From NCBI GenBank assembly GCA_043228905.1, contig JBHGNT010000001.1, positions 31,682,001 through 31,746,000 on the forward strand: a stretch of 64,000 nucleotides of DNA, given 5' to 3'. Origin of the DNA: Azolla caroliniana. Taxonomy: Eukaryota > Plantae > Polypodiophyta. The notes under the pieces were generated by a model. The model was not told the origin of the DNA. It ran no database searches and saw only the letters and a list, made by a program, of their open reading frames with translations. This document shows positions 1 through 64,000 of the stretch, one piece after another (position 1 is the stretch's first letter; every line of letters begins with the position of its first letter). The position numbers and the translations under genes were made by a program.

Positions 1-3000
1 ATCAGCTACAGAAACTTTAAAACATGGATTATCCAGAAACATATACCTCAACTGAAAGCACATCCAAATGGATGGAGGATGCATCTTCTTTAGATCCACC
101 ATGCCATTCAAATTTGTTGGTCAAATTGAGAAACCCCAAGTCTAATTGCATGTATCTGTCCATATATTTAAATAGAATTGTCTCAACATTGATAGCCATT
201 GAGCATCTTGCATAAGCACAAAAACACACTTACTCTTTGCTTGACGAACATTTAGGCATGTCTATGATGGGGTTGTCCAAAGAAACATTCAACTTCAACG
301 CTGGTAATCCATCGATATCAGACTGTGGAACAAGCTTCTCCATTCCACCAACTTTGTCAACAACTCTGGTAAATTGCTGTGCATGTGGTGCTGACAGGGC
401 TGTGAAATATGCAGTCACCTGCAAAAAATTGAGAGGTTGAAAAGAAACCTAAATTTCTAGTGTGAATTTTAGCAACTGGAACAACCTATCATTGAGGGAA
501 AATCCCCAGGGAAAAAGGAAATGTTTATAACAAGGTCATACCTCCTGGATGAACCTATATAAAAAGACAATGCGAACAGACGAGAGCCTTCCTTCCAGAC
601 TATAATCATAACCTTCATAGTCATCCTCATCCACATTGAACGATTGAAAAACCAACTGAATTAAACAAGATTTATGTCATTTTTGACAGAAAACTAACTC
701 CTGAATTATGCATTAAAAGTTCATGAGATCCTCTATTGTGAAACTGAAATTGAATTGATGACAAAGTCCTGAAAAGGAATGAAGAATGAGCTATAATGTA
801 CCTTTACTAGGGAATCACAACCTGGGTCACGTATATCACACATCCAACCCCAATGGTGAGCTGGACCAAGGGTCATGTCCCGTACTCTAAGATTTCCAAG
901 TAATCCATTGATAGCGAATGATCCTGGAAAGACCTATCACATTTCATGAAGGAAGAACACAATCAAAATAAAGATGTGATTTCACCCTTATTAAAGAAAA
1001 TTACATCATTTATAGAGTGCCAGTATCAACAACTTTAAATATATTGTCTTCAAAGATCATCACATGAACAAGTTTCTTACTTTCAGATCCATGTGAAATC
1101 TTTCTTGATCTAGCATAGCCAATCCAGTTCCGTCCTCCAAATTGAGAAAAATACGTACACTATCCATATTCATCTTTAACTGAAAGACAATTCTTGACTT
1201 CCCTTGACCAAGCAGACCTCTTACTACTTCACATTCCGCAAATGGTTCAACATCACTAGATGATATTCCAGATGCATTAGAATTATCAGGAACCTTAGAT
1301 TGCATATCCATAATTTCACTGATTTCTGAACCGAAGTCAATAAGTGCAACAACTGTAGGCCGATTGCAGAAAAATTCCAAAGTCGCCATTGAGATGCTCA
1401 TCTATTGATATTGGACAAAAAGAAAGAAACATATAATGTTGTTTTAGAGGACAAAAATGGCCTATGAAATCAAACAAGAGATCACATATTGAAACATTTT
1501 CTCATCTTTGAGACAACAAACCAAAATAAATTTGAATAGATTAGTAAACGGTCTAAGGTCAAGGATATTTCTCTTAGCTAACCATTTAACAAACTAATAT
1601 GACCGAAGACGAGAGGGGTAATTTCTGAACTAGTGGGTTCCCACTCGGTCTTTCATCTGGCAAGTAAAGCTAACAAATAGCTTTCTAGATGAATTATAGG
1701 TTCAGTGGCTTAGAAGGAAACAGGAAATCCACCAGTGTAACGAGGATTGCAACTGAAGAAAGATTATTGGAAATGTTATCTCATCTTTGAGAACAAACCA
1801 AAATAAATATAATTAGAACAGTAAAATTGCCTACAGTACAAATATTTTCATTCGCCAAGAATTTAACACCTTAAGGTATTCTCACTAGTAAAGGTACCAA
1901 TGATTCTGATTAGCTTAACATTAGCTAATGGAAGACCAGATATTCTTGTCAGCTAAGCACTTAATATATATTCTTGTTGGTTAAGCACAAAAGAAAAATG
2001 AACCCAATGTCCAATGCCTAAATTAAAAACTGTTATAAATTCAGTTAAAATGATGAAGACTCACTTGTACATCTGTATCATCATAGTCTGGTGACTCGGA
2101 CTGTCTTGTTATGATTTGCATACTCACAAAACTTCTTGAATCTCGATCTGTTCCTGACAGAACCTTATCCATTAAACGCTCCCCTGGACAAAGATTAAAG
2201 GGCTTCAGCTCTGAAGCTAAGACCATGTCTTTAATGCATGAGAAAGTGACTTTCTCGGATTCCTTTGAATGCGACTGCGAGAACTCCAAACTTTTTGCAG
2301 GTGAGGAATTTGGAGAACCACCAAATTCAGTCAGAGCATCGTTATAAATATCTTCTTCTTCCTTCTGTTTGAGCTCAGATTCAGGCAGCATTTCATTTGA
2401 TGCTATGGTCAGGCTCATATTCTCTTGGCTAAGAACAGACCGAGCAACATACTGACATGACGGAGATATGGAACCCTGCAGCTTATCCTCTATTTTCAAG
2501 TAATGAAGATTCATACCAACAGTTAAATCATACTGCCGTTGTAATACATTGACCTAGAAAGGAAGGGTGGTTCTCATCAACCATACACAGCATAACTCAA
2601 CCTTAATAAGTTATATTGACAAATCAGCATTGCATAGTACCTTTCCTCCACCAGCTTGCAGACTCAAAATAACAGCTTCATTGTTGCGTTCATGAAGAAC
2701 TTTATCTGTCTGAGCCATAGAATATAAAATATAAACAATGTAGACTTTTAGTTGCCCTGGTCATTTCTTGATTTCAATTACCAAAAAACCCACCATCTAG
2801 ATTATTCATCTCACCAATCCATATATAGATAATTGAAGTTCATGCAAAGCTCCGGTAACAAAAAGAAGGGACTGACTTAACAAATCCACCCTTGGTGGGT
2901 CCAATTCTTCATCTTCTTCAATAAAATATTCAGGTAGAGATATGGAGACAGGAACCTGTAAAAGTTTTCATTAGCAAATAAGTCACTTGACAGTGACTGT

Positions 3001-6000
3001 AAGATATTTTGTGTATCTGTCTGTATCCTTACTGATGATTTATGAATTGCTGATGTCAATAATTTCAACCATGTTTCCTTGCACCCTTGGTCCGTAAGTT
3101 CCATTATAAGACTACTAGAAGTTTCAAGACCCTGCAAAAAGAAAATTACACTCAAGGATCATATGGTCTCTAATATTGTCTTTAATCATGTCTGCAGCAT
3201 GGATAAACAGTTCAAACACACATGATACACACATGATACACACATGATACACACATATCCTCATCCTGTCAGCATAAGCAGAGATACTTTGTTCACAAAT
3301 AAAGAGAACTACAGATAAATAAACAAAATGTTTAATACCTTCTGCAGTTCTATTCCACGACTGCAAACAGCTAGGACATAACTGGACCCTCCAATATTAG
3401 ATGGAGGAACCTCCAGAACCTGCTTCCCATCCAAGCTGAAATGCAAACCCAAAAAATGAGCATAAATATCACTTTCAGAACTAGGCAAGAAAAGAGAACA
3501 AGAAAGGAAATTAAATAAATTATTATATTAAAAAAAAGAGCCATCATTCTAGTGTAGCAAAGTTTAGAACCTGAAGCAGCGTTGATATGCTTGCGAGTTG
3601 GCTGACTCCAGAACATATAAGTATGACCCGGATAAGACAACACACCGAGGCTGCCATTCAGCTACCGCATTGCCTATTCCCTATAGCAATTGGTCAAGTA
3701 AGTATAAATGTTTTTACACACATAGACATCAATCAGCCACGCTATAAAATTATTTACCTTCCAAAATAATACTCTTACAACATCCTCATGATCAGCTGGA
3801 TACCACAAAGCACTGGATTGAGCTTTCTCTATCTGATCTTTTGAGCCATCAAATGTTGCAATCAGCTGCAAGAGTCTCTCATATCTCCCAGCAGAGAAAT
3901 GCAGACCAAGCTGTGGAACTTGCAGCCCAACATGCATCAAGGGATATGCTGGATGTGGTATACGCAACTAAACCAACCAAGAAGTCAAAATTTTGATAAA
4001 ATATTTAGACAATCAAGATAGTTATAAACTCACAAACCTTTTCAAAAAGAAGAAACATTCTACAGTGATCTAACACAGGTAATAAACTACGGATAGCTTC
4101 ACGATTGCAAACTTCTTGAGATTCTTCATCCATTGACAGGTATTTTGGCATTTCTGCCCAATCAAATGATCCATCCACAAGGTAAGCCGCAATATCCGTT
4201 CCAGATATAAAGCACTGAGAATATAGATCCCCTCTAAGAGAATGACCAGAACTTCCTTGCTCGTGTTTTTCATCCTGTTCAGAAATAATCATTCACTTTA
4301 GTATCTTTAAAAGATAACATTAAATGAAATCTTGATATTAATCATAATCAACAAACATTTTCTGTATGTAAAGTGAAATGTCCCAAGTCTAAGATGAGCT
4401 CTGTATTTAATCCATTTGTTAATTTGGTATCTGCAAGAAATCTGACTTTTGGAGCATCCAAATCAAGATCAATGGAAAACCTGAATAAGTATAAGTAGTA
4501 TAGTCAGATCAATCATAGGAATTATAAATCCAACAGTGATAACACATGAGAAGAGTCTATGCTACATGCCTACTCTCTTCCTCTAGCACCGATCTTAACT
4601 GCTCCTTAGCAGCACGTCTAACTTTCTCTAATTTGCTCTACATTGAGACACAAATTAATAAAAATTAATAAAGGAATAACCATAGAAATATCTACCCTTC
4701 AATGGGGAAGATTTAGGCACTGACCTGCAAGGCTGCTGCTGTTTCCAATGCAATGCCCCGATTAACAGCATGACTACTGTTAAAAAAATGCCTGATCCGT
4801 TCAAAACTTGTATAACAGACCTGAACAGTACACCTCCCATCACATGAAAACATTGGCCTATTTATGACATCAACCTTCTTAAAGCATCGTCGAAGTTTTA
4901 AGAATCAGTTGATACGGACATTTCTTATTAAGACAAGGAATACTAGAGACTTGTTACCATGACATAGCATGGCAATATAACTGCTGATATTTTCCAATCC
5001 AATGTTGAACGCAAAGGTTGGTGAATAAACCAAGCTGATAGAACTTGTTCATTATCATCACTGCTCACACTCTAAATAAACATCAAATGTAAACAGTTGA
5101 GAAAGAAAGAAACAAAGCTATATTAACATCTTTTAAGAAGCCAAAATAGAAATACTCTGAATTGAAATACATTCTGGACAACCTTTATTAAAGGACCTTC
5201 AGGTACTGTAATGCCATATGATTGCAGTTTTACGTTACACTCTAATGTCTTCATATACATGTTAATTCCAACACATAATGCCATAAAACTGCCACCCAGT
5301 ATTTCTACTCGGTTTTGATCAAAAATTCGAACAGAACTTTCTTTGATGATTGCGTCAACAGACATTTGCAAAGAATCTGCAGCTTCCTGCAATAAAGGAT
5401 CTTCCCCTGGATGATGATTCAAAAGCTCATTTATTTTTTCCCACTCCTCCTTCGTGAACTCCCCCAATCGCATATCTTGTTTCCCCATATTAGCTTCAGG
5501 CAGAGAACCACTGATGTCATTGACCGCTACAGTTCTCCTGTATCATAAGAAAGGAAATGTCCGAGTGAGAAATTAGATCTGAAAATATTGTCACATTTTG
5601 GAGAGAAATAAGACTGAGATTCACCTCACGGAACACTAGACAGAAGATGTGAATGGTACAGGAAAATGCAGGACAAAATACCTACCATCCAAATCCCCAC
5701 CATCCCTGTTTCTTGACTTTATCACTTTCTGAACTTGTTTCTTTCGATTTCAAGCTTTCTGCTTTGGCACGTGCCAATAATCTGCTCCATTAGAAGTAGC
5801 CTTATCTTTAGCAAGACTATCATCATTCTTAGTAAAGGCTTATTTGTAAATGTGAAGCATGGATTAAACACATACCTCCAAAGAAGTAAGACTTGTAAAT
5901 CTACTTTGTCCTCAATCTCTCTAATTTGGTCACTTTCAGTTCTAGACTTTTGTTGTAGTGACTCTGCATACAACTGGACATATGTCCTCCTTAAAGAACA

Positions 6001-32487: not shown

Positions 32488-32956
32488 TGTTAAGAAAACG
32501 TGAAGAAGGCACTCGGGCTCTTCTTTTGTATGCGCGGCGGATCGTAGTGTGTTGGATCGTTAGCGTGCTCTAAACAGACAGAGAAAGGAAAGGGGACTTA
32601 CCTCTGTAGTAGCAAAATGGTTTTCTTCTATTACATGTAGAGCTCAACTTGCTCTCGTCAGTCTTCTGGTCTCTCACTCTCTCTCAGAGTTCTCTACTCA
32701 CTATTCTCTGTTTTTTCTTACTACTTACTTCCTATTCACTCTACCTTACTTTTACCTAAGTCATAAGTTATTACACATGCAGCTAATTAGCTGCCAGTAG
32801 CTAATTAGCTGTCAGTCGCTAAATAGTTGTTCACTAGCTAATTAGCTGTCACTAGCTAAATAGCTGTTTTACCTTTTTTGTTCACTAGTAGCTAAATAGC
32901 TACTATAGCTTATTTCTCATAAGCATCACATACCATGTTGAGCTTGCTTCTCAACA
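32488..32956 (-). repeat. 3' LTR of the Copia element (469 bp)
   Basis: TG...CA termini, adjacent to the PPT, about 7 substitutions and one 18-bp indel versus the other LTR. Confidence 0.96.
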
Positions 32957-32996
32957 CTCCCCCTCAAGCTCAACTTATTCTTGCTTGAGGTTCTCT

Positions 32997-35900
32997 TCAA
33001 TCTTCTTTTCCATTTTGCTTTTTAGCCATCTCATCAATGTTTACAACTCCCATCATGTTCCGAAACTGTGTATGCTTTTCCACACTCAATCCCTTTGTGA
33101 GAATATCAGCAACCTGCTGATTTGTATTCACATACACCAGATCAACTTCTCCTTCAATCACTTTTTCTCTAACAAAGTGATAATGCACTTCAATGTGCTT
33201 TGTTCTTGCATGGAACACAGGGTTCTTTGCAAGTTGAATGCTGCTCATGTTGTCACACCAGATTGTGACAGTACCGTCTATATACTCTCCCAAATCAGCA
33301 AGCAATCTTCTAATCCATACCTCTTCACAAGTGGCTATGGTAGCTCCTCTGTACTCAGCTTCAGTACTAGACAATGCAACAGTAGCCTGTTTCTTGCTAC
33401 TCCATGAAATACCTGCACTTCCCAATGTAAAGATATATCCACTTGTGGATCTCCTGTCTGTTTGGCTTCCAGCCCAATCGGCATCTGTATATCCTTCCAG
33501 ATTTATGTCTAGATCAGCCCTGTAAAATAGTCCAAAGTTCTGAGTTGCTTTTACATACCTCAGAATCCTTCTGATGCAGTCCAAATGTGGCTTTGTTGGC
33601 TGTTGCATAAACTGGCTGACTAATCCAACAGCATAGCTCAAATCAGGTCTTGTTATGGTCAAATAAATAAGGCTGCCCACCATAGACCTGTACATGTTTA
33701 CATCTTCTATCTTGGCTCCCAAATCAGCCCTCAACTTGCAGTTTTTATCAAGTGGTACAACAATAGGTTTGCATCCAAGCATACCATACTTTTTCAACAT
33801 AGTTGTTGCATACTGTTTTTGCAACATACATATACCACTTTCAGATCTGATGATTTCAATACCAAGAAAATATCTCAGATCTCCCAAATCTTTCATATGA
33901 AACTGCATTTCCAGATTTTTTTTCAACTTTCTTATTTCATCCACGGAATCTCCTCCAATAATCAAATCATCTACATAAATCAGAATAATAACAATGCAAT
34001 CATTTTCACTTTTTACATACAAAGAAGGATCAGCTTTTGACATTTTGAAACCAAGATTTTTCAGAGAATCTGAAAGTTCTCTGTGCCATGCTCTTGGTGC
34101 CTGTTTCAGTCCATAGAGAGCTTTTTTCAGCTTACATACATAATCAAGATGTTTCTTATCTTCAAAACCTGGTGGTTGACTCATATACACTTCTTCTTCC
34201 AAGTTACCATGTAAAAAGGCATTTTTTACATCCATGTGATGCAAAATCCATTTTCTGGCTGCTCCTACAGCAAGTAGTGTTCTCAAGGTTGCCATCTTTG
34301 CAACCGGTGCAAAAGTCTCATCATAATCAATCCCTTGCATCTGGGCATATCCTTTTGCAACCAATCTTGCTTTATGTCTACTTATATTCCCATTGGAGTC
34401 ATGCTTTGTCTTGTAGACCCATTTGCAGCCTACCACATTTTTCTCTTTTGGTAACTTCACTAAATCCCACGTTTTGTTCTCAGCCAATGCATCAATCTCT
34501 TCTTGCATTGCATCCATCCATTTTTTCTCAGATTTTGCTTCTTCAAAGCTGTTTGGGTCAGGGATCTGTACCACCTTAGACATATATGCATAGTGCATAG
34601 CCATATATGTATCATACCCAAATCTTTCCACAGTCTTTTTCTCTCTATCTGATCTTCTCAGTTTCTGATTTGCATTCTTTATTGCCTTTTCCATACCAGG
34701 GATTTTCATTTCCTGTATTCCAAGGAAATCATCCAAAGACATATCTGAATCTTCATCTTCCATGTTTTTTGATAGGTCATCCGGGATTTCATACTCTGGC
34801 ATTTTCTGTTTTCCTTTTTTGTCATCAGATTTTTTCTGTCCAGTTTTTCCACTCCATGAATTTGAATCAGATTTACCATCTGAGCTTTTTGATGGTCCAG
34901 AACATTCTGTTGATGTTGGACTTTGCTATCCAACCTTGTCTCCATCTCTGTGACAGTCTTCTACATTTTCTGATCTGTCTTTGTCTTCATTTTGACAGTC
35001 TTCATCAGTCTCTAGATTCTGTTTTGGGCTGTACCAACTAGCCAACTCATCAAATATCACATCTCGACTTGTCACAATCTTTTTAGTCACAGGGTTATAA
35101 CATCTGTACCCTTTTTGTTCTTCTGAATATCCAACAAAGATACATTTTTCTGCTTTTGGATCCAACTTACTTCTTACTTCTGCAGGCACATGTACATATG
35201 CAAGGCATCCAAACACTTTCAAGTGTTGTAAGCTAGGCTTCCTGCCATAAAAACACTCTTCAGGAGTTGCCTCATGTACTCTTGATGTAATACATCTATT
35301 TAAAATGTAATTTGCTGTATTTACAGCTTCTGCCCAATAGTATAATGGCATGTTCTTCTCAGTCATCATTGCCCTTGCTATGTTCACCAATGTTCTGTTT
35401 TTCCTCTCAGCAACTCCATTTTGCTGTGGAGTATATCTACATGTGAACTGTCTTCTTATTCCCCGATTACACAAAAAATCAGAAAATTCATTGGAGAAAT
35501 ACTCTCCTCCTCCATCAGATCTCAAACATTTTATCCTTGTACCAGCCTGCTTTTCTACCATGCATTTAAACTTACGAAAACAGTCAAATACTTCACTTTT
35601 CTCCTTCATGAAGTACACCCATGTCTTCCGTGAACAATCATCAATAAATGTAACATAAAATCTGCATCCACCAATAGATGCATTCTTTGTTGGTCCCCAT
35701 ACATCTGTATGTACCAAATCCAACAGATTTTTGCTTACATGTCTTTCATGAGGGAATGGCAACCTGTTTTGCTTACCATATTGACATGCTTCACATACTT
35801 TTCCCATTTCACACTTTTTCAAGTTTGGCAGTCCAGCCACTGCATCTTTTCTCAACATATTCTTTAATGTTTGCATACTTATATGGCCAATCCTTTTATG

Positions 35901-37322
35901 CCACATTTCCACATCTGAGATTACACTCGTTCCATTTGCAAACATGGCTGAAATCTGTTTGGGCATTTCTACATCCAAGATAAACATTCTTCCTTGTCTC
36001 TTCCCTTTTGCAATGAGCTTCCCATTCTTTTCTATATAGCATCCACTTTGCTTAAACTTCACTTGCATACCTTGCTCTACTATCTGTCCAACAGAAATCA
36101 GATTCTTAGCAAGGTTTGGAACATGCATCACATTCAACATATACTTGGTTTTTCCTCTTTCTTCCCACAATGGGATATCTCCAACATGTTTTATTTGGTG
36201 AGTTGTGTCATCACCTGTTTGTACATAACCAGGAACCTCTGGTTCTCTTAAACTCACAAACCAATTTGCATGTCCAGTCATATGGTTAGATGCCCCCGAG
36301 TCTACATACCACGTAAACTCTTCATTACATTTCTGTGAGCTTTCAGCCACTGCTGCTATCTCATGTTGCACTACAAAACCACCTTCCTTTTCACAATCTT
36401 CACTAGTAGAGGCATAGTTACTCTGTTGTCCTTTTCCTCTTTTCTCATCATTTTGTTTCTTGTAACATTCAGCCTGTGTATGGCCTGGTTTACCACAATA
36501 CCATCAGCCATCATCATTTACATAAGTTTGCTTACCTCTACCTCGGTTGCTCCCCCTGCCTCTGTTGTTGTTTCCTCCTCTATGAGCTTGTTGTCCTCTT
36601 CCTTGAAAGCCATTATTATTGGTTCTTCCTGAGCCAAATCTTCCATGGCCTCTTCCTCGGCCTCTTCTGGCATTATTATAGAGGGCTTGCCCCTCGTTCT
36701 CTGAGTTTCCTTTATTTGCATCATCCATCTGATTCCTTTCCTCTACCACAAGCATTGAGACCAGATCTGAAAAACTTGGGGTACTATCCCTTGTGAGCAT
36801 AGAAGTTTTAAAACTCTTGTATTGAGGTCCTAAGCCTCTTAAGCATATTTCCACTTTGTCATCATCTTCTATCTTCACATTGATAGAAGCAAGTGATTCA
36901 CATATACTCTTGATTTTTAGGGCATACTCATTTATTGACATCTTACCTTTTTCTAAGGTATTTAGCTCAGTCTTCAACTGTAGCTTTCTAGCTTTTGTGT
37001 TTACTGCAAACAGTTTTACCAAATTGTCCCAAGCTTCTTTTGGGAGCATAGCATCCTGTATGTGCCCAAGCATCGAATCTGAGATGCTAAGTGAGAGCCA
37101 ATGCAGTACCTTCCTTGCCCCTTGATTCCAATCTTTGAATGCTTTAATCTGTGCTGCTGTGGCATTTTCTTCTGGGATCTCCGGAGCCTCTTCTAGGTCT
37201 CCTTTAATGTAATCCCAGTATCCTTTCCCCATTAGGAAATTTGTCATTCTAAATTTCCACGCCGGGAAATTGTTTTTATCTAATTTCTCTGTGACCATTT
37301 GGCCTACATTCTCTGCAGCCAT
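32997..37322 (-). pseudogene. Copia gag-pol polyprotein interrupted by two in-frame stop codons
   Basis: ORFs 36504-37322 (gag), 34926-36371 (PR WYVDSGASNHM, GAG-pre-integrase WHKRIGH, INT VHTDVWGP..LRSDGGGEY..PQQNGVAERKNR) and 32997-34802 (RT IYVDDL, RH GYTDADWAG) are all in one frame, separated by TGA 36504-36506 and TAG 34926-34928. Confidence 0.92.
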
Positions 37323-37466
37323 TTTTTTCCTTCCAAAAAACCAGGGTTTTGCTTTAGTTACTTCAACAAGTAACTTTCTGATTTCTGATCAGCAACCAGA
37401 GAAATAACTTTCTCAGATTAAGGCACTGCTATACTCTTCCTTACGAGCTACTCTGCTCTAATACCA

Positions 37467-37953
37467 TGTTAAGAAAACGTGAAGAAGGCACTCGGGCTCT
37501 TCTTTTGTGCGCGCGGCGGATCGTAGTGTGCTGGATCGTTAGCGTGCTCTAAACAGACAGAGAAAGGAAAGGGGACTTACCTCTGTAGTAGCAAAATGGT
37601 TTTCTTCTATTACATGTAGAGCTCAACTTGCTCTCGTCAGTCTTCTGGTCTCTCACTCTCTCTCAGAGTTCTCTACTCACTATTCTCTGTTTTTTCTTAC
37701 TACTTACTTCCTATTCACTCTACCTTACTTTTACCTAAGTCATAAGTTATTACACATGCAGCTAATTAGCTGCCAGTAGATAATTAGCTGTCAGTCGCTA
37801 AATAGCTGTTCACTAGCTAATTAGCTGTCACTAGCTAAATAGCTGTCACTAGCTAAATAGCTGTTTTACCTTTTTTGTTCACTAGCAGCTAAATAGCTAC
37901 TATAGCTTATTTCTCATAAGCATCACATACCATGTTGAGCTTGCTTCTCAATA
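37467..37953 (-). repeat. 5' LTR of the Copia element (487 bp)
   Basis: Adjacent to the PBS. The outer terminal CA is mutated to TA and there is one extra 18-bp repeat unit. Confidence 0.96.
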
Positions 37954-39163
37954 GTAACAAGTCATATTATTATCATTTTCTAATGCTAAATGAATTCTTA
38001 TTGCCTGTTTAATTGATGGAATTTGTGTTTCAAGTAAGTTGGATTGAAAACTGAATTTTGATAGTTTTAACTTTTGGTTATTACTTGAGATTTTGGGTGT
38101 AGTAAATGGCCATTTGTATTTGTTTTAGGATTTGTCTCAATTCACATATCATTACTACTCTACTCACCTTGTACTATAATGTAAAAGGTCACTTAAGGGA
38201 TTGTGAAAGACATGCCAAATGCATATGAGAAGAAGAGAGTGCATGAGTAACCATATAAGATACATGCAGCACACAATTCAGTAGATAAGAAAAAGATACA
38301 GAACTAAAGATACATACCAGAGAATTCCATCTCAGTATAAAGCTTATTATGTTTCTGGCATTATAATATGCATAATAACCCAAGAAATAGAATTTGCAGC
38401 ATGGTCTGACTAACCATGTTTTGTGACTGACATGTCTAAATCTCAACTTACACATCAGGTTAGATAAAGCTTTACTGATTTATGGCCTCACGTTAAGAGG
38501 TTTAATATTTATGACATCATGCTAGTAGATAGAGATTTACTCTTGGCTCAATTTTGGAATCGCCGCACTCCAACTTAGGTCGGAAATTCCAATAAATTGT
38601 CAAATTTGATTGCGGCATACAATAGAATCCAACACCAGCATACAATAGAATCTAAGTGTAACTCATATATATATGCTTTGATTAAATTGCGATTCGCATT
38701 TCTCCATACGGCATTCAATTTGGCAACATGTAATAGAACGACAACTGTAACTTATACGCTATGGCATTTATATTACATGTCCAAAATCAAAGTGCAGTTA
38801 TCACTAGATGGATTAGGTTGGCAGCATATCATTACAACTTAAACATTGTCAAGATTGAATTGTAAGCTTGACACGGACATATATCTCACACCAAATCATA
38901 TGAAGACATATCCACTATTTAAAGACATGACTGTAAAATAAAATAATCATTTACGCAAACTTACACTATACCATAGCATTATAACATGTGATGATCATTT
39001 GGCAAAATCCTCAGAAAACACACCCACATTTAAAGATATATCATATAACATGAGATAATCAATAAACCAGTCTGCATATACAGTGCAGGTCCGGACTAAT
39101 TAAAGATGAGAAATAAAAACCCATTGAAATTGTTCTATATTGCTGCAGCTTGCAGCGTTTTTC

Positions 39164-40477
39164 TCACCAATAATCACCACATGAACAATACCCTTTCTTG
39201 AAGACATGAAACCTGAAGGCATCTCTCATGATGATCTCTCGCCCGGTGATATAAGCCATATACTTAGTAGCAGTATGGCAATCTCCACAAACCCTAAGGT
39301 TCTTGATAATCCTTATGGTAGTCTTGGGAGGAGTTTTGATGAATCCATAGCACATGGCAAGCTTTTCACTATGGAAATTGATGGCTCGGACCTTGGCTGC
39401 CTCATCAATATCATGAAGAACAAACCTAGTATCAGGTTCATATCCAATTAAATACATTTCCTTGATGATACGGTCAAGCTCAGCGTGAATTGCTTTCAGT
39501 TCAGGATGGTTTCGATCATTAGCCATGAAAGAGTGGATTTTCCCATTCACCTCAATTCGGCTAAGTCCGGGTTCCTTCTTGATACCTCGTTCTTCCATCA
39601 TTTTGCGGATTTTGTTCTTCTCTTCCCATCGATTGGCTACAGGTGGCGGCTTTGGGACAACACCACGTTCAACTGGTGTGATTAAAGGGACACCCCCGGG
39701 TAAGGTTGGAATCACAGCAGGTCCCACTGATGGTCTTGGAACAGCAAACAATACATTAGGAAGCCTAAAGTTGGTCTCTTTATTACTGGTCTTTCTCCCT
39801 AACGTATCCCGTTCTTTACATGTGATCCATCCTGATGGCATTCCTGCAAGCTGAGGAACTAACCTGTTGTTGTTTCCACTGATAAAGTTTATGATCTCAT
39901 CCATATATGTGGTGCTGGTGTTGTTGCCATATATTAAGTTCATAAGATCATCCACCATGCTGGAAAGCTGAGAGACTAACCCGTTGTAATTGTTGTTTCC
40001 ATGGATATAGTTCACAAGCTCGTCCATCCCAAGAGTGTCGTATATGCCGAAAAGCATCATCTGTATGTGAAAATGCACGCTTTCCATAAAAAACTGGAGC
40101 TTTTCGGAAGAATTACCTGAGAAGGAAGACGAAACATCCAAACTCCCCACGGTCTCCTTGCTTTCCACAGCTTCTTCTGCATCTGAACCTTCTTCTCCTT
40201 TAAGTAAACGAAAAGGTGCAGAGGACAATGATTTCATCATCAACGGAAGAGTAATAGCCGAGAACAAGCCTTCATGTTTCTTCTTCGTGTCTTCTGACCT
40301 ACCATCGGTCGTCGAAGAAGCCATAACCACGCCATATCTCCAGTTAGTTCTGCTTCTGGGAAGCTTCGTGCTGGGTAACGACGGAAGGCGGGAGGAGGAG
40401 GAAGAAGTAGAGATTGTAGCGATTCTTTTATCGAGAGAAGGGGAAGAATATGCGTGAGCCTTGCAGAGGGCGTCCAT
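39164..40477 (-). CDS. Intronless DYW-domain cytidine deaminase with putative plastid transit peptide and no recognisable PPR motifs (437 aa)
   Basis: C-terminus has the PG box KKEPGLSRIEVNGKIHSF, HSEKLA, KNLRVCGDCH and RDAFRFHVFKKGYCSCGDYW*. The Ser/Arg-rich N-terminus ends in VVMAS. Confidence 0.9.
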   Translation of the reverse strand: MDALCKAHAYSSPSLDKRIATISTSSSSSRLPSLPSTKLPRSRTNWRYGVVMASSTTDGRSEDTKKKHEGLFSAITLPLMMKSLSSAPFRLLKGEEGSDAEEAVESKETVGSLDVSSSFSGNSSEKLQFFMESVHFHIQMMLFGIYDTLGMDELVNYIHGNNNYNGLVSQLSSMVDDLMNLIYGNNTSTTYMDEIINFISGNNNRLVPQLAGMPSGWITCKERDTLGRKTSNKETNFRLPNVLFAVPRPSVGPAVIPTLPGGVPLITPVERGVVPKPPPVANRWEEKNKIRKMMEERGIKKEPGLSRIEVNGKIHSFMANDRNHPELKAIHAELDRIIKEMYLIGYEPDTRFVLHDIDEAAKVRAINFHSEKLAMCYGFIKTPPKTTIRIIKNLRVCGDCHTATKYMAYITGREIIMRDAFRFHVFKKGYCSCGDYW

Positions 40478-41761
40478 GGCGGTTGTGAAACAGGGGAACC
40501 CTAGCTGAGCAGAGAAAGCGAGGGGAGGAGTAGGGGTGGAAGAAACAGGGAAGATGCGAACCTCTCTCTCTTCCTTCCTTCCTTCCTTCCTTCCTTCTCC
40601 CTTCCTTATCTTTTTATCAGATATTTTGGTTTCTTTTCTTCTTCTGCTTGAGTGGCTCCTCTCTTAAAAGTTAAAACCCCAAGAAATGTATTCTTTTTTT
40701 TCTCCACATACATTACATACATACATGTTATAGGGGTTTATCACATCCAAGACGGTGGTAGGCATGTGTGTGGGTGTGCCCCACGTCCCCGACCGTTTTC
40801 CATGTGTGAAGTGTTACCACACTACCTATACGGGGACATCCCCCGTCACTCCTCTCAGTTCTAGTCATACTGACACATACAGAGCACGCATATATGCTTT
40901 CTCTGCACATCATTAGACTCCCAATGTATAAAGAAAAGAACCTTGTTCCATTGGGTTCGCAAATGATAAGCAAGAAAAGATCATTCATGCCCAAGTTGAA
41001 TCTAAGCTACAATAAAACGTAAATACTTCACGTTGTGCATTGCCCTAGTGGTTGGCTAGTTGCCATATGATATTGCAAGTTTTTTTTTTTTTTTTTCTGG
41101 CATGCGAAATAGTTTGGGAATCTTATCATGCTATTACAAAGTAGCAAAGGATAATCAAGGGATCATCATCCAATCAATGATTTTCCTTGGTCACAACTAC
41201 AAGCATATAGAGGCATGCATGAATTATTTGGCTATTAGTCAGGATTAATGCCTACATAATTTGGCCTACAAGCCCACATAGTTTTGTTTGAAATACTTAT
41301 TGTTAGTAGGGTCCGGCACAAGAATTGGAAATACAATCTTAGATTGCGCATTGATTTATAATAGACCCTTTGTGCACGAGATCTTTTACAAAGACTCTTC
41401 TATAGACACTCATTGAATATCATCAATTATATATCATATTGAGGATTAACACATTGGTGAATTGTTGGAGGGGCAAACCCCATGAAATTCAACAAATCAA
41501 TATATTCTCCCTTTACATTGGATAGGCAATCACAAGCACAAACAAAATTAATAACTTAGCAAAAGATCTATACATAAAAAAGCTATAAAAGATAGAGAAA
41601 GTTTTGCAAGACCAATATCAATGTCAAATGTGAATGCCTAATATGAGTCTCTCCTTGAACTACAATCATAAATAAGGCATTTATAATTTTATGCAGAAAT
41701 TTACTAGCTCACAAATCTGCTAAAACAATTTAATCTAAATAATTCAGTCAATAAACAAATT

Positions 41762-55065: not shown

Positions 55066-58000
55066 TGGATTCAATTACATGTATTTTCTCTCTGCAAATA
55101 TATAAGAAAATATTCAAAGCATAAATGTTTGGTAAAACTTGTCATCACAAGGTAAAGATCGACAATGTCCGAATGTGTTTCTTTCTGCCATATGATTGAT
55201 AATGTGTATAATAGAGCTCTGATGTAATATTATTGAGAAAACTTGAAGATGCTTTCGTTACTTCTATTCTCTAATCCATTTCTTTTTTTTTGGTTTGTTT
55301 GCTTTCTTGTAAAGCATGAAAACACGAGTGGTCACTAGAGATACCATATATCTTAACATCTTAAAGGTTTTGAGAAATTCTGCGTTTGATGTCAAAGCAT
55401 TCAGTTTGAACCAAACGCACAAAGCAAGACAGCTTTGAGCAGATTTATATCTTCAATTGCTTGGCTTCAATTGTTCATGAAACCTAAAAACATGTTAAAC
55501 TAGAAATAAAATATATATCTCACAATCTTTAAGGTTTGACCATTTTGTATAACAAAGCATTTAATCCAGATTCTCAGCAAAATTCATACAGAAAATCAGC
55601 TTAGAGCACATTGATTCTCATTTTCATTTATTACATCGATTTCCTGATAAAAATCATGATAGCGTGTTATGAATTGATGGATTTCAATATGTGTCACTTA
55701 ATTCCATGTGCAAAAGATTAATGTGATATAGAGGAGATAATATTTTGGCTAGGAACAGAATCCATCAATGTGCCCAAATGCCAAATGGCCAACATATACT
55801 GTCCTCAAATTGCACACAACTGTCTACAGACTCAAGCAGACACCACCAATTTAGTCTCTTCAGTTCAAGAAATAATAATTGGCACAGGAACAAGCTCCAT
55901 CAATTCTTGATGCCATTAAACATCAGTTACTACCAAACAGCAGGCAGGAGGGTTTGCAGAGAGTACGCAAGTGTATCCACCTTGTGCCATGGACATTAAA
56001 TGCCAATAAGAACAAGGGTTGCGGTCTGACAGGTAATATGCCAATCTATATACCTTGAGTAGGAACAAGTTCCACCGATGGCCAATGCAATAAATGAGTT
56101 TCTTTTGAAATTCTCGCAATCTGACTTGCAGAGAACATGCCAGCATACTCATCATGTGCCATGGAAACATGGTAAAAAAGAAGGTTTATAGATAATTCAA
56201 AACAATTTGTTGTTTACCCATAGCAATGTTTTAGTACGGCTTGCAACATCAGCCTTAAGGTATCTATATTATGTCATTCCCACAACCATAGACATTGTCC
56301 TAAATATCTTAAAGAAGTATATCTTGATGTCTTCTCCATGATCCTATATGCTTCCAACACTGTCTTAGCAACGTTCTGGTATCATCATCATTCATGCTCA
56401 AGATGAACCCTAACAAATTACGATGTTGTCAACAACATGAGACAAGAAATTAACGTTATGCTAAAAAGCATTAACCTCCTGAGCCGTCAAAATGACCCCA
56501 AGATTATGTATGGAACAAGCCAAATCATTCATTGGGGGGAATCTGGTATAATCAGTTCGAAAAGCTATTTTCCATTTTTCAACGTGCCGATTGTGAGCAT
56601 AAATTTGAGAAATTTGAGGGTGCTTACCAGAGGCAAAGAAGGAAGCGGGCCTGAACATATATCTGCACTAAGTATACAGTAAAAAGACGGTCAGAACTCA
56701 GGAGGGCATGTATACATACATATATATATATATATATGGACTGCCTATATGTTGTACAAAAAAATTGCTCCGTGATCGAGAGCATGCCTTGCATAAACAT
56801 GTACATGCACATAAAAGAGGGGGATCTTTTGAGAACTACATATTGCAGTTTTGCTTACTTCCCACTTGCCCACTCGATGTCCACACCTCTCAAAGAATCG
56901 CCATATATATATATATATATATTGTGGTCTTATGTGCATTTCACAATATATATATTGTATGTACATATGTATATATGTATATATGCAAATGTATACAGAT
57001 AAAGGAAGCAAATAAAAAATACACTATGCTAAGATCAAAATGCAGAGTGTGGGTGTGTGTGCACATATTAGAGCTTTGGTGATTGGCCATGGTGAAGACA
57101 TGTCATGGAGAACTTGATCTCCTCGCAATTGGACAAAAAAAAGAGAAAGTGCCCTTCTCCCTTTAGACTCACTAGTTTCATCCGGCCATATGTAGTGCTC
57201 ATCACTCACCCAAAACATTCCCGTGATCATGTGGGCATGTTTGTCCACTCGTGAACACGTGCCTCAAATGATGTGATTGATCTTCAATCCTTGTACCATC
57301 TAAGTATCTCTTCCTACCATGAACCCCAAACATGAGGTTTAGCATCATGTGAGTACCCTCAAATTTATTAGGCTTTGGTCAACACCCAACCAGTTTTTAT
57401 AATCTCGCCCTCATCCCTCACATATGCATGTGTAGAATATGATGTATCTTGCCTTGGTAGCAATAGAGTAAAGTGTGTTGGGATACTTACCAATAGTAGA
57501 TTGGCAAGAGTCTCGTTGTGGTTCGACATTAATTGATATAAGCCAAACTACATCCGGATAACATAGCGATTTGACATGGATCATGATATACGATTTTCAT
57601 GAAATAAAGGGCATTTGATTTATACATGCTACATTGGATTTCTCTTTTGGTTCAATTAGCTCCTTATGGATTAGAACTAGCTCACATATGGGACATACCA
57701 ACGGTAACTACCAACTGAAGTACCATATGATTATGGTTGGTTCTTGGGCAAAACAAATGGGTGTGTATTGGAATAATTGAGGGCTGATTGTTTAACAATG
57801 TTGAACCCATATCATCACACATCGATTCTTTTTAAGAGTTTAACTCTTCGGGTATAGAGTGAAAAGTTTAAAACCCTTTAAAATAATGTGTAAGGAGTCA
57901 ATCTTATGTCTCACCCAAGTAAAAAGTAGAAACTAACAACTTGTTTGCATGTTGAAAGTATGTTGATGGCTTAACACCAATTGATCCTAAATGGGGCAAA

Positions 58001-58708
58001 AGAACAAATAACATAGCACTCTTGTTAATTTTACTATTTTTCACAAACCTCTTATGTAAGTTCCTCCTTTGTGCATATGACAATATAAGGATAATAATAA
58101 TATCACTACGAATCAACTTGTACCATGGCATTGCAATAATTAACATGTGAATCATTTGTTTGATACAACGCATTGTCAATATGTAGTATGATGTTGGGAA
58201 TATTTGAAACTTAACTTTACGGGTTGGCAATCTAGTCATACAACCACCATTAGAGAAAAGTTTTCTAGCCAACATTGCTTGACCACCTTGTGGTAAATCT
58301 AATGACCCTTTCGACTATTTGATTAACTTTGTGCACATCGAGATTTAAGGATATAGAAATAGATCAATTACATTAGGTTCCCTTTCGCTTCCATCTAACA
58401 AGGGCCCGACAAAAAAGACCAAGCTACTCACATTCTTATGTGTATCCACTAAAATGATGGAAACTCATAAATGGAATTTCCAAAAATCCTAGCTACATAA
58501 AAACAGCCCCTTCATGTTGAATACTAACACCGTAATCAAGAGCTTTAAACCAATAACTTTATAGAGCTCTAGTTTCAAATTCAGAAGACACTCATATGCA
58601 ATGGAATCCACCTTTACATTTCGAGTAAGATATGCTCCCTATTAACATTCCCATTTCACTGTAATTCCAATCCATCCTAACCAAAACCAATATTTATCTA
58701 ACTTTGAC

Positions 58709-60780
58709 CTAGAGGAAGCACGGTCGTGCACCAAGACTCATTTCCTTGATATCCTCAACAAGCTTGTTCAAACTAGACCTCGAATACCCAATCTCCATTG
58801 CATGTCTAGCTTCTTCTTTCATCTCCAATATCCTTTTCCTCACCTTTTCTCCCTCTGGTTTATGCATCAATGTATTGATAGCTTTTGTCACCAAGCCCTT
58901 CTTAACCTCAACCTTGCTCTTTCCTACATCCATGGGAATGGCCACATTCCAATCTATGAGACACTTCAAGTTTGTGTTTTGCTCAGCCCCACGAGGGCAC
59001 CCAATGAATGGTTTCCCATTCCAAAGGGACTCCAGTATGGAGTTCCACCCACAATGAGTGAGGAATCCTCCAATTGCATCATGCTCTAGAACATCGAGTT
59101 GGGGTGCCCACGAGGTTACTCTACCCCTCTCTTTAGTCCTAAGAAGGAAACCCGTCGGCAATACACTCGAAGTATCATTACCCATTGCTAAATCCGGACG
59201 AATCACAAGCAAGAATGGTTGCTGGCTATCCTCAAGACCAAGGGCCAACTCATGGATCTCCTCAACTGAAAGCTTGGCATAGCTCCCAAAGGATACATAG
59301 ATAACTGATGAGTTAGTTTGCTTGTCGAGCCATTCAAGGCACCCATCATCCTCCGAATGTGGGCTTGCCCTCTTGTATCCTTTCAAAAGTAATGGACCGA
59401 TGGGGTCAATAGGTATCCCCTCCTGCCGCAAAGCATTCACAATATCCTTTTCCCATTCGTATACGGAATGCACAATGACTCGTTGGGCCTCCTTTCCTCG
59501 CGCACATGATTCCTGAATGAATTTGAAAGTAAACGGTGATATGGGATAGGCTAAGTCGTAAAAGAAATCACAAATTTTCCACAAGCCGAGTCCGGGTAAA
59601 GGGTCGAAATATGTGTCACCACAAGCACCTGCGGAAAAAACCAAGGAAGCCTCTCATTAGGTAACTTCTCTTATAACAAATTCATGTACATTGGAGGAAT
59701 TTTACTCTGGTGAACCATACCCCATGACCATTCTATTAATGTTAGCATTGACCATTAAAATTTAGTTATATTCAAGATTCCTTGGAATGATTAAACTATG
59801 TAGGCATATGGGCTCCTAAAAATATAAATGTGCTCCTCGAATAAGGTACAAGGATGTGGCATTGCATTGCCAAATCCTCTACGTAAGACCTATCTCTTGT
59901 GTTGGACATCTCCTTGCATTGATTACTCGGTCTACGGAAAGACAAACAATGTGGCCATTAATTGTTGCATTACATAGAATTGTCCCTCGGTATAGCGTCT
60001 TGGGTCGCTTTGTATAAGACCCATCCGAGATCTCCACTATTACATAACTCTAACCAATGTATCTGCCATTGCTAGCTACACATGTATGGCATCCCGGGCC
60101 TCTCTATGTGAGAGACTAACTATCTCTTGTTGTAGCCGCTTCACATGGCATGCATGGCCTATGCTTCCAAGAGAAACAAAATAAAAAACCAGACGTCCTC
60201 AACAAAGACACTCAAATGAATATGTTGGTTGACATGAAGAACTGAATGAACTACCTGGCTTCACAGGAAGTTGACCATTGGCAAGTAATCGAGGAGCATA
60301 GAAGCCCATGGCATAGCTAGTGACAGAAGAGGCCCAAAACTCAATCCTTGGTATGTTGAATTTGTTAGCCACATCTTGAGTCCAAGTCAAGAAACTATTA
60401 GAGATGATACAACAAGGAGGAAGAACATGAGAAGCACCATCTTTACTCTCACAAACGTTAAAAAGCTTATGTAAGAGCTCTTCTAGCTTCAGCATTAGGA
60501 GAGGGAAGGAGTCCACAAACATCTGAAAAGATGGGATGATAGGTGCACCCTTGTCCATTGGATCTGGTAGATCTTGGATTACCTCAACTTTGATGCCTTC
60601 GCCGAGGATTGCGCTCGTAAGGTTATTGGTACTATTGTCGAAGAGGGACATGATTCGTGCGGTGTAGATTAAGGTTATGTCTAGATCTCCTGAAGAGGCC
60701 AGATGGGTAGCCAAGAGACCCATAGGGTTGATATGGCCAAGTGCGGGGAAAGGAAACATGAGAACATGTGGTTTGCTCAT
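58709..60780 (-). CDS. Family-1 UDP-glycosyltransferase, copy A (2 exons: 60255-60780, 58709-59628)
   Basis: N-terminal PHVLMFPFPALGHINP, IYVSFGS and PSPG box WAPQLDVLEHDAIGGFLTHCGWNSILESLWNGKPFIGCPRGAEQ. The GT-AG intron 59629-60254 joins the exons in frame. Confidence 0.95.
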
Positions 60781-60794
60781 GATTTTGGTCTCCC

Positions 60795-60832
60795 TCTTCT
60801 TCTTCTTCTTCTTCTTCTTCTTCTTCTTCTTC
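60795..60832. repeat. (CTT)n microsatellite just upstream of the UGT start codon
   Basis: Read directly. Confidence 0.9.
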
Positions 60833-63012
60833 TTGCTTGCTTGTTGCTTATATGCAGTGGTGGTAGTGCTAGATATAATGGCATACGTTTTATTGTAATG
60901 CTAAATAAAGATGTGATTAATTGCTCTGAAGAGAGAGTAATGTGAAATACATAAATGCCATTGCAAAGAAAGTTTTAAGCCATTGCTTAAGAGCCTACTC
61001 TGAGATCGTTGTAGGTGGAATCATCTAAATGCTTAAAAAGTTGTGCCCCATGGGCCATAAGATATGTACCCGCTTGTCTCACAACCACTTCTTCATGAAC
61101 CACAAAACACTTATCTCCATGTCTTCAAAACCATACTAATGAATCGATGAATAGGATATGTCACGTTGCCTTTATGTTTTCAAAGTCGAGTCCCCACACA
61201 CATTATATAGTATGCTTATATGACTTTTGGCAACTTTTTCACTTTTGCCAAATTGGAATGTTGGAAGCTTCTAAAGGACTGATCAAAGCTTCTGCATTGG
61301 GAAAGTAAATCGAGAAAGCTTCTACATTTGGGTGTACATACTATATATATACAAAAACATGAGGTAAAACTTTGAAATATAATGGTTCATTTTTACTTGA
61401 ACCAACTTTGATTAATTGATACCTTCTCAAAAGTGGTACGTACATTTAACATAAACCCTTCTGATATTCGAGCCATTTCGAACGGCTCAGTTCATGTGAG
61501 TAATAGGGATCTAATTTGAGGGAGAGAGAGAAAGAAAGCAAGCAAATAAAAAATACAGTGTGCTAAGATCAAAATGCGGACTCTGTGTGTGTGTGCGTGC
61601 GCGCATATTAGAGCGTTGGTGATTGGCCATGGTGAAGACATGTCATGGAGAACTTGATCTCTTCTCGAGTACACATTAAAAAGAGAGAGTACTCTTCTCC
61701 TTTAGACTCACTAGTTTTCCTCCGGCCACTGCTTGGCCAAAACATTCATGTGGTCGCGTGGACATGCATGTTCCTCCTTGTGTCCATGAGTCGACACGTG
61801 CCTCCAATGAAGCGATTGATCTTCAATCATCAACCATGTGAGTACCCTCAAATTTATTAGGTTTTGGTCAACACCCAACCAATTTCTATAATCTCGCCCT
61901 CATCCCTCACTTATGTATGTTGTCTTAGTAGCAATAGAGTAAAGAGTATTGGGATACTTACCGATAGTAGATTGGCAAGAGTCTAGTTCATGGCTTGACG
62001 TTAATTGATATAAGCGAAACTACATCCGGATAACATAACGCTTTGATATGGATTATGATATACAATTTCATTATAGAGTGCATTTAATTTATACACGCTA
62101 CATTGGATATCTCTTTTGGTTCTATTAGCTCCTTCTCCACGATATGGAATAGACGTGCCTCACATGCGGAACATATACCAACGGTAGCTCCCAACAAAAG
62201 TACCATATGATTATGATTGGTTGTTGAGAAAAACAAATGGAACATCAACAAATGGGTGTAGTGGAATAATCAAGGCTAATTGTTTAATAATGTTGAACCC
62301 ATATCATAGCACACCTATTCTTTTAGCAATTTAGCTTTTCGGGTATATAGTGAACAACTCAAAACCGTTCATAGCAATATGTAAGGATCCAATCCATGTC
62401 TCACATAAGTAAAAAGTAGAAACTAACAACTTGGTTGGATGCTTAAGTGTTCGAGGCTTAATAATGTAGAAATAGATTGATTACATTACGTTGCCTTTCT
62501 TTTTCGTCTAACAAGGGCCTGGCAAAAAAGACAAAGCTACTCACGTTCTTATGTGTATCCACTAAAATGATTGAAACTCCAAGCTCCAAAAAAACACCCC
62601 CTTCATTTTGAATACTGGTAAATCTAATGACCCTTTTGACTATTTCATGAACTTTCTAAGCATCGAGGCTTAAGGATGTAGAAATAGATTGATTACATTA
62701 CGTTGAGTTTCTCTTCCATTTAACGAGGGCCCAACAAAAAAAGACAAAGCTACTCATGTTCTTATGTGTATCCACTAAAATGATTGAAACTCCAAGCTCC
62801 AAAAAAACACCCCTTTCATTTTGAATACTAACAACAAAATCGAGAGCTTTAAACCAATAACTTTATAGAGCTCTAGTTTCATATTCGGATGACACCCATG
62901 TGCAATGGAATCCATCTTTACATTTTGAGTAAGATATGATCCCACCAACATTCCCATTTCATTGTAATTTCCAATTCATCCTAACCAAAACCAATATTGA
63001 TCTAACTTTGAC

Positions 63013-63932
63013 CTAGAGGAAGCACGGCTGTGCACCAAGACTCATTTCCTTGATATCTTCGACAAGCTTGTTCAAACTAGACCTCGAATACCCAATCTCC
63101 ATTGCGCGTCTAGCTTCTTCTTTCATCTTCAATATCCTTTTCCTCACTTTTTCTCCCTCCGATGTATGCATCAATGTATTGATGGCTTTTGTAACCAAGC
63201 CCTTCTTAAGCTCAACTGCACTCTTTCCTACATCCATGGGAATGGCCACATTCCAATCTATGAGACACTTCAAGTTTGTGTTTTGCTCAGCCGCACGAGG
63301 GCACCCGATGAATGGTTTCCCATTCCAAAGGGACTCCAATATGGAGTTCCACCCACAATGAGTGAGGAATCCTCCAATTGCATCATGCGCAAGAACATCG
63401 AGTTGGGGTGCCCACGCAGTTACTCTACCCCTCGCTTTAGTCCTAAGAAGGAAACCCAATGGTAACACACTCGAAATGTCCTTACCAGATGCTAAATCGG
63501 GACGAATCACAAGCAAGAATGGTTGCAGGCTATCCTCAAGGCCTAGGACCAGCTCATGGATCTCTTCAAGTGAAAGCTTGACATTGCTCCCAAAGGATAC
63601 ATAGATAACTGATGAGTTAGTTTGCTTGTCGAGCCATTCAAGGCACCCATCATCCTCCGAATGTGGGCTTGCCCTCTTGTATCCTTCCAAAAGTAACGGA
63701 CCGATGGGATCAATAGGTATCCCCTCCAGCCGCAAAACATTTACAATATCCTTTTCCCATTCGTATACGGAATGCACAATGACTCGTTGGGCCTCCTTTC
63801 CCCGTGCACATGATTCGTGAATGAATCTGAAAAAGAATGGTGATCTGGGATAGGTTAAGTCGTAAAAGAAATCGCAAATTTTCCACGAGCCGAGTCCAGG
63901 TAAGGGGTCAAAATATGTGTCACCACAAGCAC
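63013..63932 (-). CDS. UDP-glycosyltransferase copy B, exon 2 only (exon 1 outside window)
   Basis: Open frame highly similar to copy A exon 2, with PSPG box WAPQLDVLAHDAIGGFLTHCGWNSILESLWNGKPFIGCPRAAEQ and the same acceptor context (CAG|GTGCTTGTGG). Confidence 0.92.
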
Positions 63933-64000
63933 CTGAGAAAAAAGCAAGGAAGCATCTCATCAGGTAGCGTCTCTTCTAACAAATTCGCGCGCATTGGAGG

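Follow-up and report, generated by a model that had tools for sequence, protein, structure and literature searches.

A PPR-less DYW protein of the fern Azolla caroliniana: a candidate trans-acting C-to-U editing deaminase

Arabidopsis DYW1 works in trans with CRR4 in plastids (PMC11897456, PMC7076377), and it relies on CRR4 for E2 and the PG box (PMC11897456, PMC13041630). The DYW1-like group, whose members are DYW1, DYW2, MEF8, MEF8S, DYW3 and DYW4 (PMC11897456, PMC7076377), has as its defining features a very small number of PPRs, the lack of a PG box and an E2 that is degenerate (PMC7076377). Maize PCW1 and MEF8 are described as having a complete DYW domain, few retained PPRs and no E1/E2, and angiosperm donors as relying on P-class and MORF bridges (PMC11897456).

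In ferns, editing affects hundreds to thousands of organelle cytidines, and thousands of PLS proteins stand beside as few as four DYW proteins (Schizaea). DYW proteins were reportedly surveyed across plants by Gutmann et al. in 2020. In Schizaeales, 1266-3095 DYW-less PLS proteins are counted beside 13-280 E+ and 4-35 DYW proteins (PMC13263110), and Salviniales have a similar excess of PLS proteins over DYW domains (PMC12548569). Trans-acting donors have been proposed for ferns, with pairing not yet predictable (PMC12548569, PMC13263110); in the parts of these two papers considered here, counts and the hypothesis are given and no donor gene, family or signature is named. The PPR-less fern family described below and its signature likewise do not appear in the considered parts of the literature, including PMC13386178, PMC7611903, PMC10226603 and PMC6786969.

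Trans donors are already known, and for ferns they have been proposed in print; added here are a concrete candidate gene and its family. The gene lies in 64,000 nt of Azolla caroliniana DNA (contig JBHGNT010000001.1, positions 31,682,001 to 31,746,000), the whole of which is called the window below. We consider it reasonably probable, from its sequence and those of its relatives, that this PPR-less DYW protein is imported into plastids and acts as a shared trans C-to-U deaminase for DYW-less PLS proteins.

Architecture of the protein and comparison with known editing factors

The minus-strand ORF at 40477..39164 is real: it translates to 437 aa in a single exon (39164..40477), contigs cross it without joints, and the 62 open codons upstream of it have no in-frame ATG. 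Pfam placed DYW at residues 345-437 and E+ at residues 314-341, and it recognized the second half alone of the E motif (residues 281-309, profile positions 35-63 of 63), with no PPR family found in the protein at E<=1. A P2-L2-S2-E1-E2 profile made from 81 canonical PPR-DYW proteins matched residues 281-310 alone (E 4e-10). Searching all six frames of the window with a similar profile, including the 23.5 kb upstream of the gene, yielded no further credible PPR piece, the two remaining matches having E values of 1.7 and 2.9. The original prediction had claimed an intronless ORF with neither PPR repeats nor E1, and the scans find only the second half of E/E2, E+ and DYW.

The catalytic anatomy is also as predicted. 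HSE is at residues 369-371 and CGDC at residues 397-400, the second zinc site and the terminal DYW are present, and the PG box (PG at 303-304) reads PGLSRIE, in which R307 is a Trp-to-Arg change. Residues 303-437 (39164..39571, minus strand) hold the PG box, the gating region, HSE, CGDC and the DYW end. The C-terminal 158 residues align gap-free with the solved synthetic PPR-DYW 9kfx (62% identical). Hence, the domain is of the PG type (C-to-U) and not of the KP type. KP-type domains (U-to-C) are described as having a KP motif and a 3-4 residue deletion (PMC11713852); the fern protein has neither, and it has the HxE, CxxC, second zinc site, terminal DYW and PG box of DYW:PG domains.

Ahead of its DYW domain, the protein is without the P-L-S tract and E1-E2 of PLS-class PPR-DYW proteins. 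Relative to canonical PLS-E1-E2-DYW:PG factors (consPPR-DYW 9kfx, OTP86), it shares E2 helix 2, the PG box and DYW without a gap, but it is devoid of P/L/S repeats, of a recognizable E1 and of E2 helix 1, and its PG-box Trp is replaced by Arg.

Like Arabidopsis DYW1, the DYW1-like group and maize PCW1, the fern protein is a short DYW protein with few or no PPRs and intact HxE and CxxC. In contrast to the DYW1-like proteins, it keeps helix 2 of E2, the PG box and the gating region in full; of the three features that define that group, it shares the scarcity of PPRs, has a PG box and has kept E2 residues in helix 2 (helix 1 is absent). AtDYW1 scored 127-136 bits against three PPR-less fern proteins and 154-160 bits against three ordinary DYW fragments, and these scores were 0.54-0.58 of the respective scores to 9kfx for PPR-less and ordinary proteins alike. 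The original prediction would have fallen had the protein been a plain DYW1-like member; two of three defining features and the AtDYW1 scores speak against this, although a D-I...K..A motif before HSE is seen by eye in AtDYW1, too, and would be either convergence or deep orthology. We infer that the fern protein works like a DYW1/PCW1-type donor, yet we do not file it as a DYW1-like member.

Two PPR-less fern families

A first search gave 1497 matches, and the best 120 had eight PPR-less proteins on top, followed by P0011 among canonical PPR-DYWs. Named members come from Pteridium aquilinum, Adiantum nelumboides, A. capillus-veneris and Ceratopteris richardii (KP509_22G033800), and the family has in common the leader, a helix, a PQLAG motif, a Pro-rich stretch and DYW. 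The Azolla protein is identical to the Pteridium, Adiantum and Ceratopteris members at 139-142 of the 157 C-terminal residues, and to P0002 at all of the last 157. Six relatives share the start position of the ORF. Counted over nine members, invariant positions number 0/54 in the leader, 1/70 in the spacer, 3/26 in the helix and 2/53 in the repeat (six within residues 1-203), then 10/40 in residues 204-243, 19/37 in the Pro-rich residues 244-280, 17/22 in the E2 helix and 114/135 in DYW.

With residues 50-282 as the query, four matches were found among 1233 candidates and all are family members. In the ESM Atlas, residues 55-282 had no usable match, and all that P0269 (the Ceratopteris protein KP509_22G033800) retrieved were generic pieces of DYW under 0.8. 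Among the best 150 of 4178 representatives of 50% clusters, the N-terminal region was matched by P0002, P0007 and P0008 only. A metagenome scan gave 14 loci, of which at least two belong to the family (L001 and L002), and L005 is an ordinary PPR-DYW. In L002:150-210, the reading frame is broken near codon 286. The contig is very thinly covered, and this is either a sequencing error or a decayed copy.

A profile search for further PPR-less proteins (4919 matches, 120 listed) revealed a second PPR-less fern family, with at least the members P0284 (Pteridium), P0291 and P0344 (Adiantum nelumboides), P0272, P0293 and P0126. Its PG box reads PGWSRIE, it has a significant E1-E2 relic (E 1.4e-5) and Arg at the RNA contact equivalent to H528, and it is without the conserved middle motifs of the first family. 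The leaders of its three full-length members start Arg-rich (3-4 Arg in the first 20 residues) with hydrophobic moments of 0.45-0.54; they look mitochondrial, which makes this family a candidate mitochondrial donor.

The remark in the original prediction that PGLSRIE departs from the usual PG box proved informative, as Arg marks both PPR-less fern groups: it is found in 15/15 PPR-less proteins and in 6/314 other DYW proteins. The usual Trp is present in 228 of these 314; hence, the position does vary. Lys287 is similarly found in 15/15 versus 14/314, and the D-I...K..A motif in 14/14 PPR-less rows versus 10/309 others.

A FastTree tree was built from 329 rows, without duplicates, isoforms, three double-domain rows and the synthetic protein; in it, both PPR-less groups join at 0.87. 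With IQ-TREE on 59 rows (of which 14 are PPR-less, 7 were chosen and 38 were drawn at random), group 1 plus P0011 has a support of 99/96 and group 2 of 100/99. From these trees, a single origin of the two groups is likely, with weak support for their union (84/51). The nearest tree group is three Selaginella-type PPR-DYW proteins (P0067, P0109 and P0136), which join the union at 84/92. These three also are without E2 helix 1 by eye, and the part of their E motif that Pfam recognizes is the second half alone, as in the fern protein; they differ in that the PPR tract is kept and the PG-box Trp position has Met, not Arg. They possibly represent an intermediate state.

The middle region, the leader and a possible role in trans

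Between leader and E2 helix, the original prediction had seen an acidic spacer, a hydrophobic helix, a triple repeat and a Pro-rich linker, and it had offered as one option a novel module in place of the PPR array. Residues 54-124 (40106..40318) are a variable, partly acidic spacer with one of 70 positions (55-124) invariant in nine members and pLDDT below 30. The triple repeat at about residues 151-204 (39864..40026) is present in the DNA as three copies of 40 nt that are 73-75% identical. It is found in 2/10 aligned proteins, the rest having the unit once, and one Ceratopteris isoform is without the unit entirely; we take it to be a recent lineage-specific tandem duplication and not a family feature.

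AlphaFold with a 10-row alignment gave a mean pLDDT of 42, with DYW itself poorly resolved, pLDDT below 50 for residues 1-133 and 178-280, and helices at 123-200. In Foldseek, only DYW and other deaminase folds scored below E 0.002, with no match for the middle region. Hence, with the repeat in 2/10 proteins, six invariant positions in residues 1-203 and no confident fold (weak evidence given the shallow alignment), a novel folded module is unsupported. The middle region is best read as a linker that has decayed while keeping a few conserved short motifs, and not as a new folded domain.

The helix (residues 127-150, 40028..40099), which is moderately hydrophobic, is shared by the family, and it may be a faint PPR-like relic. 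In an unrestricted profile comparison, the first family's residues fell on L2-S2 (P about 0.09-0.1), and in a restricted comparison they landed on E1, where 1/100 (local) and 2/100 (global) shuffles did as well. With the three Selaginella-type proteins, 5-6/60 shuffles scored as high, and the match lay at a different place. These tests disagree on register and each is weak or negative, so the helix is described here as a possible decayed E1- or L2-like motif. We also considered it as a membrane anchor and were not convinced (the highest hydropathy over 19 residues is 1.29 in this protein and 1.41-1.81 in its relatives). P0009, an annotated isoform of P0269, is without 36 residues spanning the conserved helix; this looks like an in-frame internal splice, and no such joint is found in contigs on the window.

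Residues 206-280 (39638..39862) hold the motifs PQLAG and P.VL and a Pro-rich stretch at the position of E2 helix 1. The search with the middle region matched only family members, and their similarity is uneven, being high in the Pro-rich stretch and low in residues 1-203. The Pro-rich stretch is conserved enough for a binding role and may be a short docking motif. Its invariant positions and those of residues 204-243, the confinement of middle-region matches to the family, and the P-class and MORF bridges of angiosperm donors (PMC11897456) could also mean that the middle motifs have a targeting function of their own and bring the deaminase to RNA through a non-PLS partner, or directly, and not through DYW-less PLS proteins. 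We regard this as unlikely: the second fern group has the same architecture without these motifs, the DYW domain still has its PPR-docking face, and P0009 does without the helix segment.

The reading that we prefer is a donor for DYW-less PLS proteins. Without repeats of its own, a protein cannot choose its site by the PPR code; hence, this one likely works in trans. Across the 15 PPR-less proteins compared, no variation is seen at H369, S370, E371, L394, C397 and C400 of the active site, which include the zinc ligands, the catalytic Glu and the base-stacking Leu, or at R395, R418, R422, F423, Y436 and W437 of the interface (R568, R591, R595, F596, Y609 and W610 of the solved PPR-DYW). Of the RNA-backbone contacts, R291, K301 and H355 are kept (R464, K474 and H528 of the solved PPR-DYW), the first two within the second helix of E2 (residues 281-302, 39572..39637), which Pfam, the profile and the structure comparison all recover. 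The roles of these active-site, RNA-contact and interface residues come from the solved PPR-DYW, and recruited DYW proteins are described as retaining the interface residues; W480, the PG-box Trp, goes unmentioned in the considered parts of that structure paper (PMC13324415). The interface residue equivalent to H598 is Val in the Azolla protein and P0002 and His in the other 13.

The gating and catalytic parts carry many family-specific residues seldom found in other DYW proteins (for example Y342 and Y409 in 0/314, F421 in 1/314), and E1 and E2 helix 1, described as RNA-contacting, have been lost; the protein might therefore be a zinc-binding non-editor, such as a regulator, a decoy or a deaminase of another substrate. 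There is only a small chance of this, as the protein has all catalytic residues, R291, K301 and H355 as well as most of the docking residues, and as ferns need donors (PMC12548569, PMC13263110).

In the donor model that we favor, a DYW-less PLS protein would bind upstream of the target C, and the donor would dock on its terminal repeats via R395, R418, R422 and F423 (R568, R591, R595 and F596 of the solved PPR-DYW). The donor would contribute the second E2 helix, the PG box, the gating region and the zinc site, and deaminate the C. K287 and R307, both basic and invariant, replace mostly hydrophobic residues and would suit a domain minus the first E2 helix, and the conserved Pro-rich stretch may be a flexible tether or a short docking motif. 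Having its own E2 helix 2, PG box and gating region would suit the donor to acceptors that end before these parts; most Schizaeales PLS proteins are of this bare kind (PMC13263110). The fern protein also fits the short trans-acting DYW protein that the fern donor hypothesis predicts (PMC12548569, PMC13263110). The original prediction of a donor recruited in trans is therefore the part that is favored, indirectly, through the conserved PPR-less family, the intact active-site and docking residues, the contigs without joints and the PLS excess, and its alternative of a novel module is the part that is not.

Residues 1-53 (40319..40477) form a Ser/Thr-rich, acid-poor leader, likely a plastid transit peptide judging from composition. 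Its first 50 residues have 16 S/T, 2 D/E and 8 R/K, and relatives are alike; its end, V-M-A-S, presumably fits the cleavage consensus of plastid transit peptides. Across the family, leaders have 8-18 S/T in 50 residues, 0-2 Arg in the first 20, and hydrophobic moments of 0.12-0.46. Plastid targeting is plausible on this composition. A trans donor that is mitochondrial or dual-targeted instead of plastid-only has a slim probability; AtDYW2 serves both organelles (PMC11897456) and the moments of the family touch those of the second group, but the leaders are Ser/Thr-rich and poorer in early Arg than the second group's. The second PPR-less family, with its mitochondrial-looking leader, would serve the other organelle.

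A wider proposal is more tentative, and we would rather doubt it than count on it: that the two families are a fern pair running most C-to-U editing, the Azolla protein's family in plastids and its PGWSRIE sister in mitochondria, having arisen independently of the angiosperm DYW1-like proteins, bringing their own E2 helix and PG box to thousands of bare PLS arrays, and held by a Pro-rich tether. The slowly evolving PPR-less family, the PGxSRIE signature, KP509_22G033800 and the sister family are named candidates for donors. They would bear on how a donor with a PG box docks onto a bare PLS array, on the expansion of RNA editing in ferns, and on programmable C-to-U editors of a split design.

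Transcription, selection and surroundings of the locus

Of 24 runs listed, 20 have part of the stretch, with the kind (RNA or DNA) a guess for most; eight were aligned to the gene region, all as Logan contigs. The gene is covered in 7/8 of these with no joints in any, and flanking bins are empty. Coverage ends within about 180 nt 3' and about 80 nt 5' of the ORF, giving a probable-RNA contig span of 38984..40556 (minus strand; the ORF with about 180 nt on its 3' side and no less than 79 nt on its 5' side) with uncovered flanks and a 5' limit that abuts a skipped microsatellite. In run X6, which comes from a relative with about 95% identity, one 1535-nt contig lies on 38984-40482 and crosses the whole ORF without a splice; its loose 3' end resembles, we assume, a cDNA-synthesis adaptor. 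Run X8, the sole run on record as RNA, had nothing aligned on the gene. The full-length relative P0004 comes from a Pteridium transcript assembly. The unspliced mRNA of the original prediction is thus what the contigs show, with most runs only guessed to be RNA, and splicing to upstream PPR exons is not seen.

Between X6 and the window, 40 of 106 differences were listed; among these, 14/14 in codons 265-437 are synonymous, and 6/18 in codons 172-246 alter the residue. At locus L001, 24/233 codons differ, 22 synonymously and 2 conservatively. The DYW half is under purifying selection. Logan contigs drop rare variants; hence, minor splice forms may be missed, and this, together with the 5' end abutting a skipped repeat, is what could be said for the gene being a fragment, a pseudogene or the last exon of a longer spliced PPR-DYW gene. 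We consider that very improbable and largely refuted by the single contig over the whole ORF, the 23.5 kb upstream free of PPR motifs, the six relatives that begin at the same place and the synonymous excess.

Runs X1, X2 and X15 have a second copy beside the exact one, about 92% identical (28 differences in 354 nt, 40049-40402), with many non-synonymous changes in leader and spacer; it is a homoeolog or a recent paralog. A Copia-type LTR retrotransposon lies 1.2 kb downstream of the gene (32488-37953), with LTRs 95% identical, a 5-bp direct repeat at its ends and a polyprotein frame broken by stops; locus L001 aligns on both of its sides, the element itself being absent. Tandem duplicated UDP-glycosyltransferase genes are found in 57001-64000 on the minus strand (58709-59653 and 63013-63975, with an 89% identical stretch). 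A 44-nt stretch at 41296-41339 matches high-depth contigs in four runs (one of 8.7 kb) that diverge from the window beyond it, and it is possibly a small organelle-derived insert.
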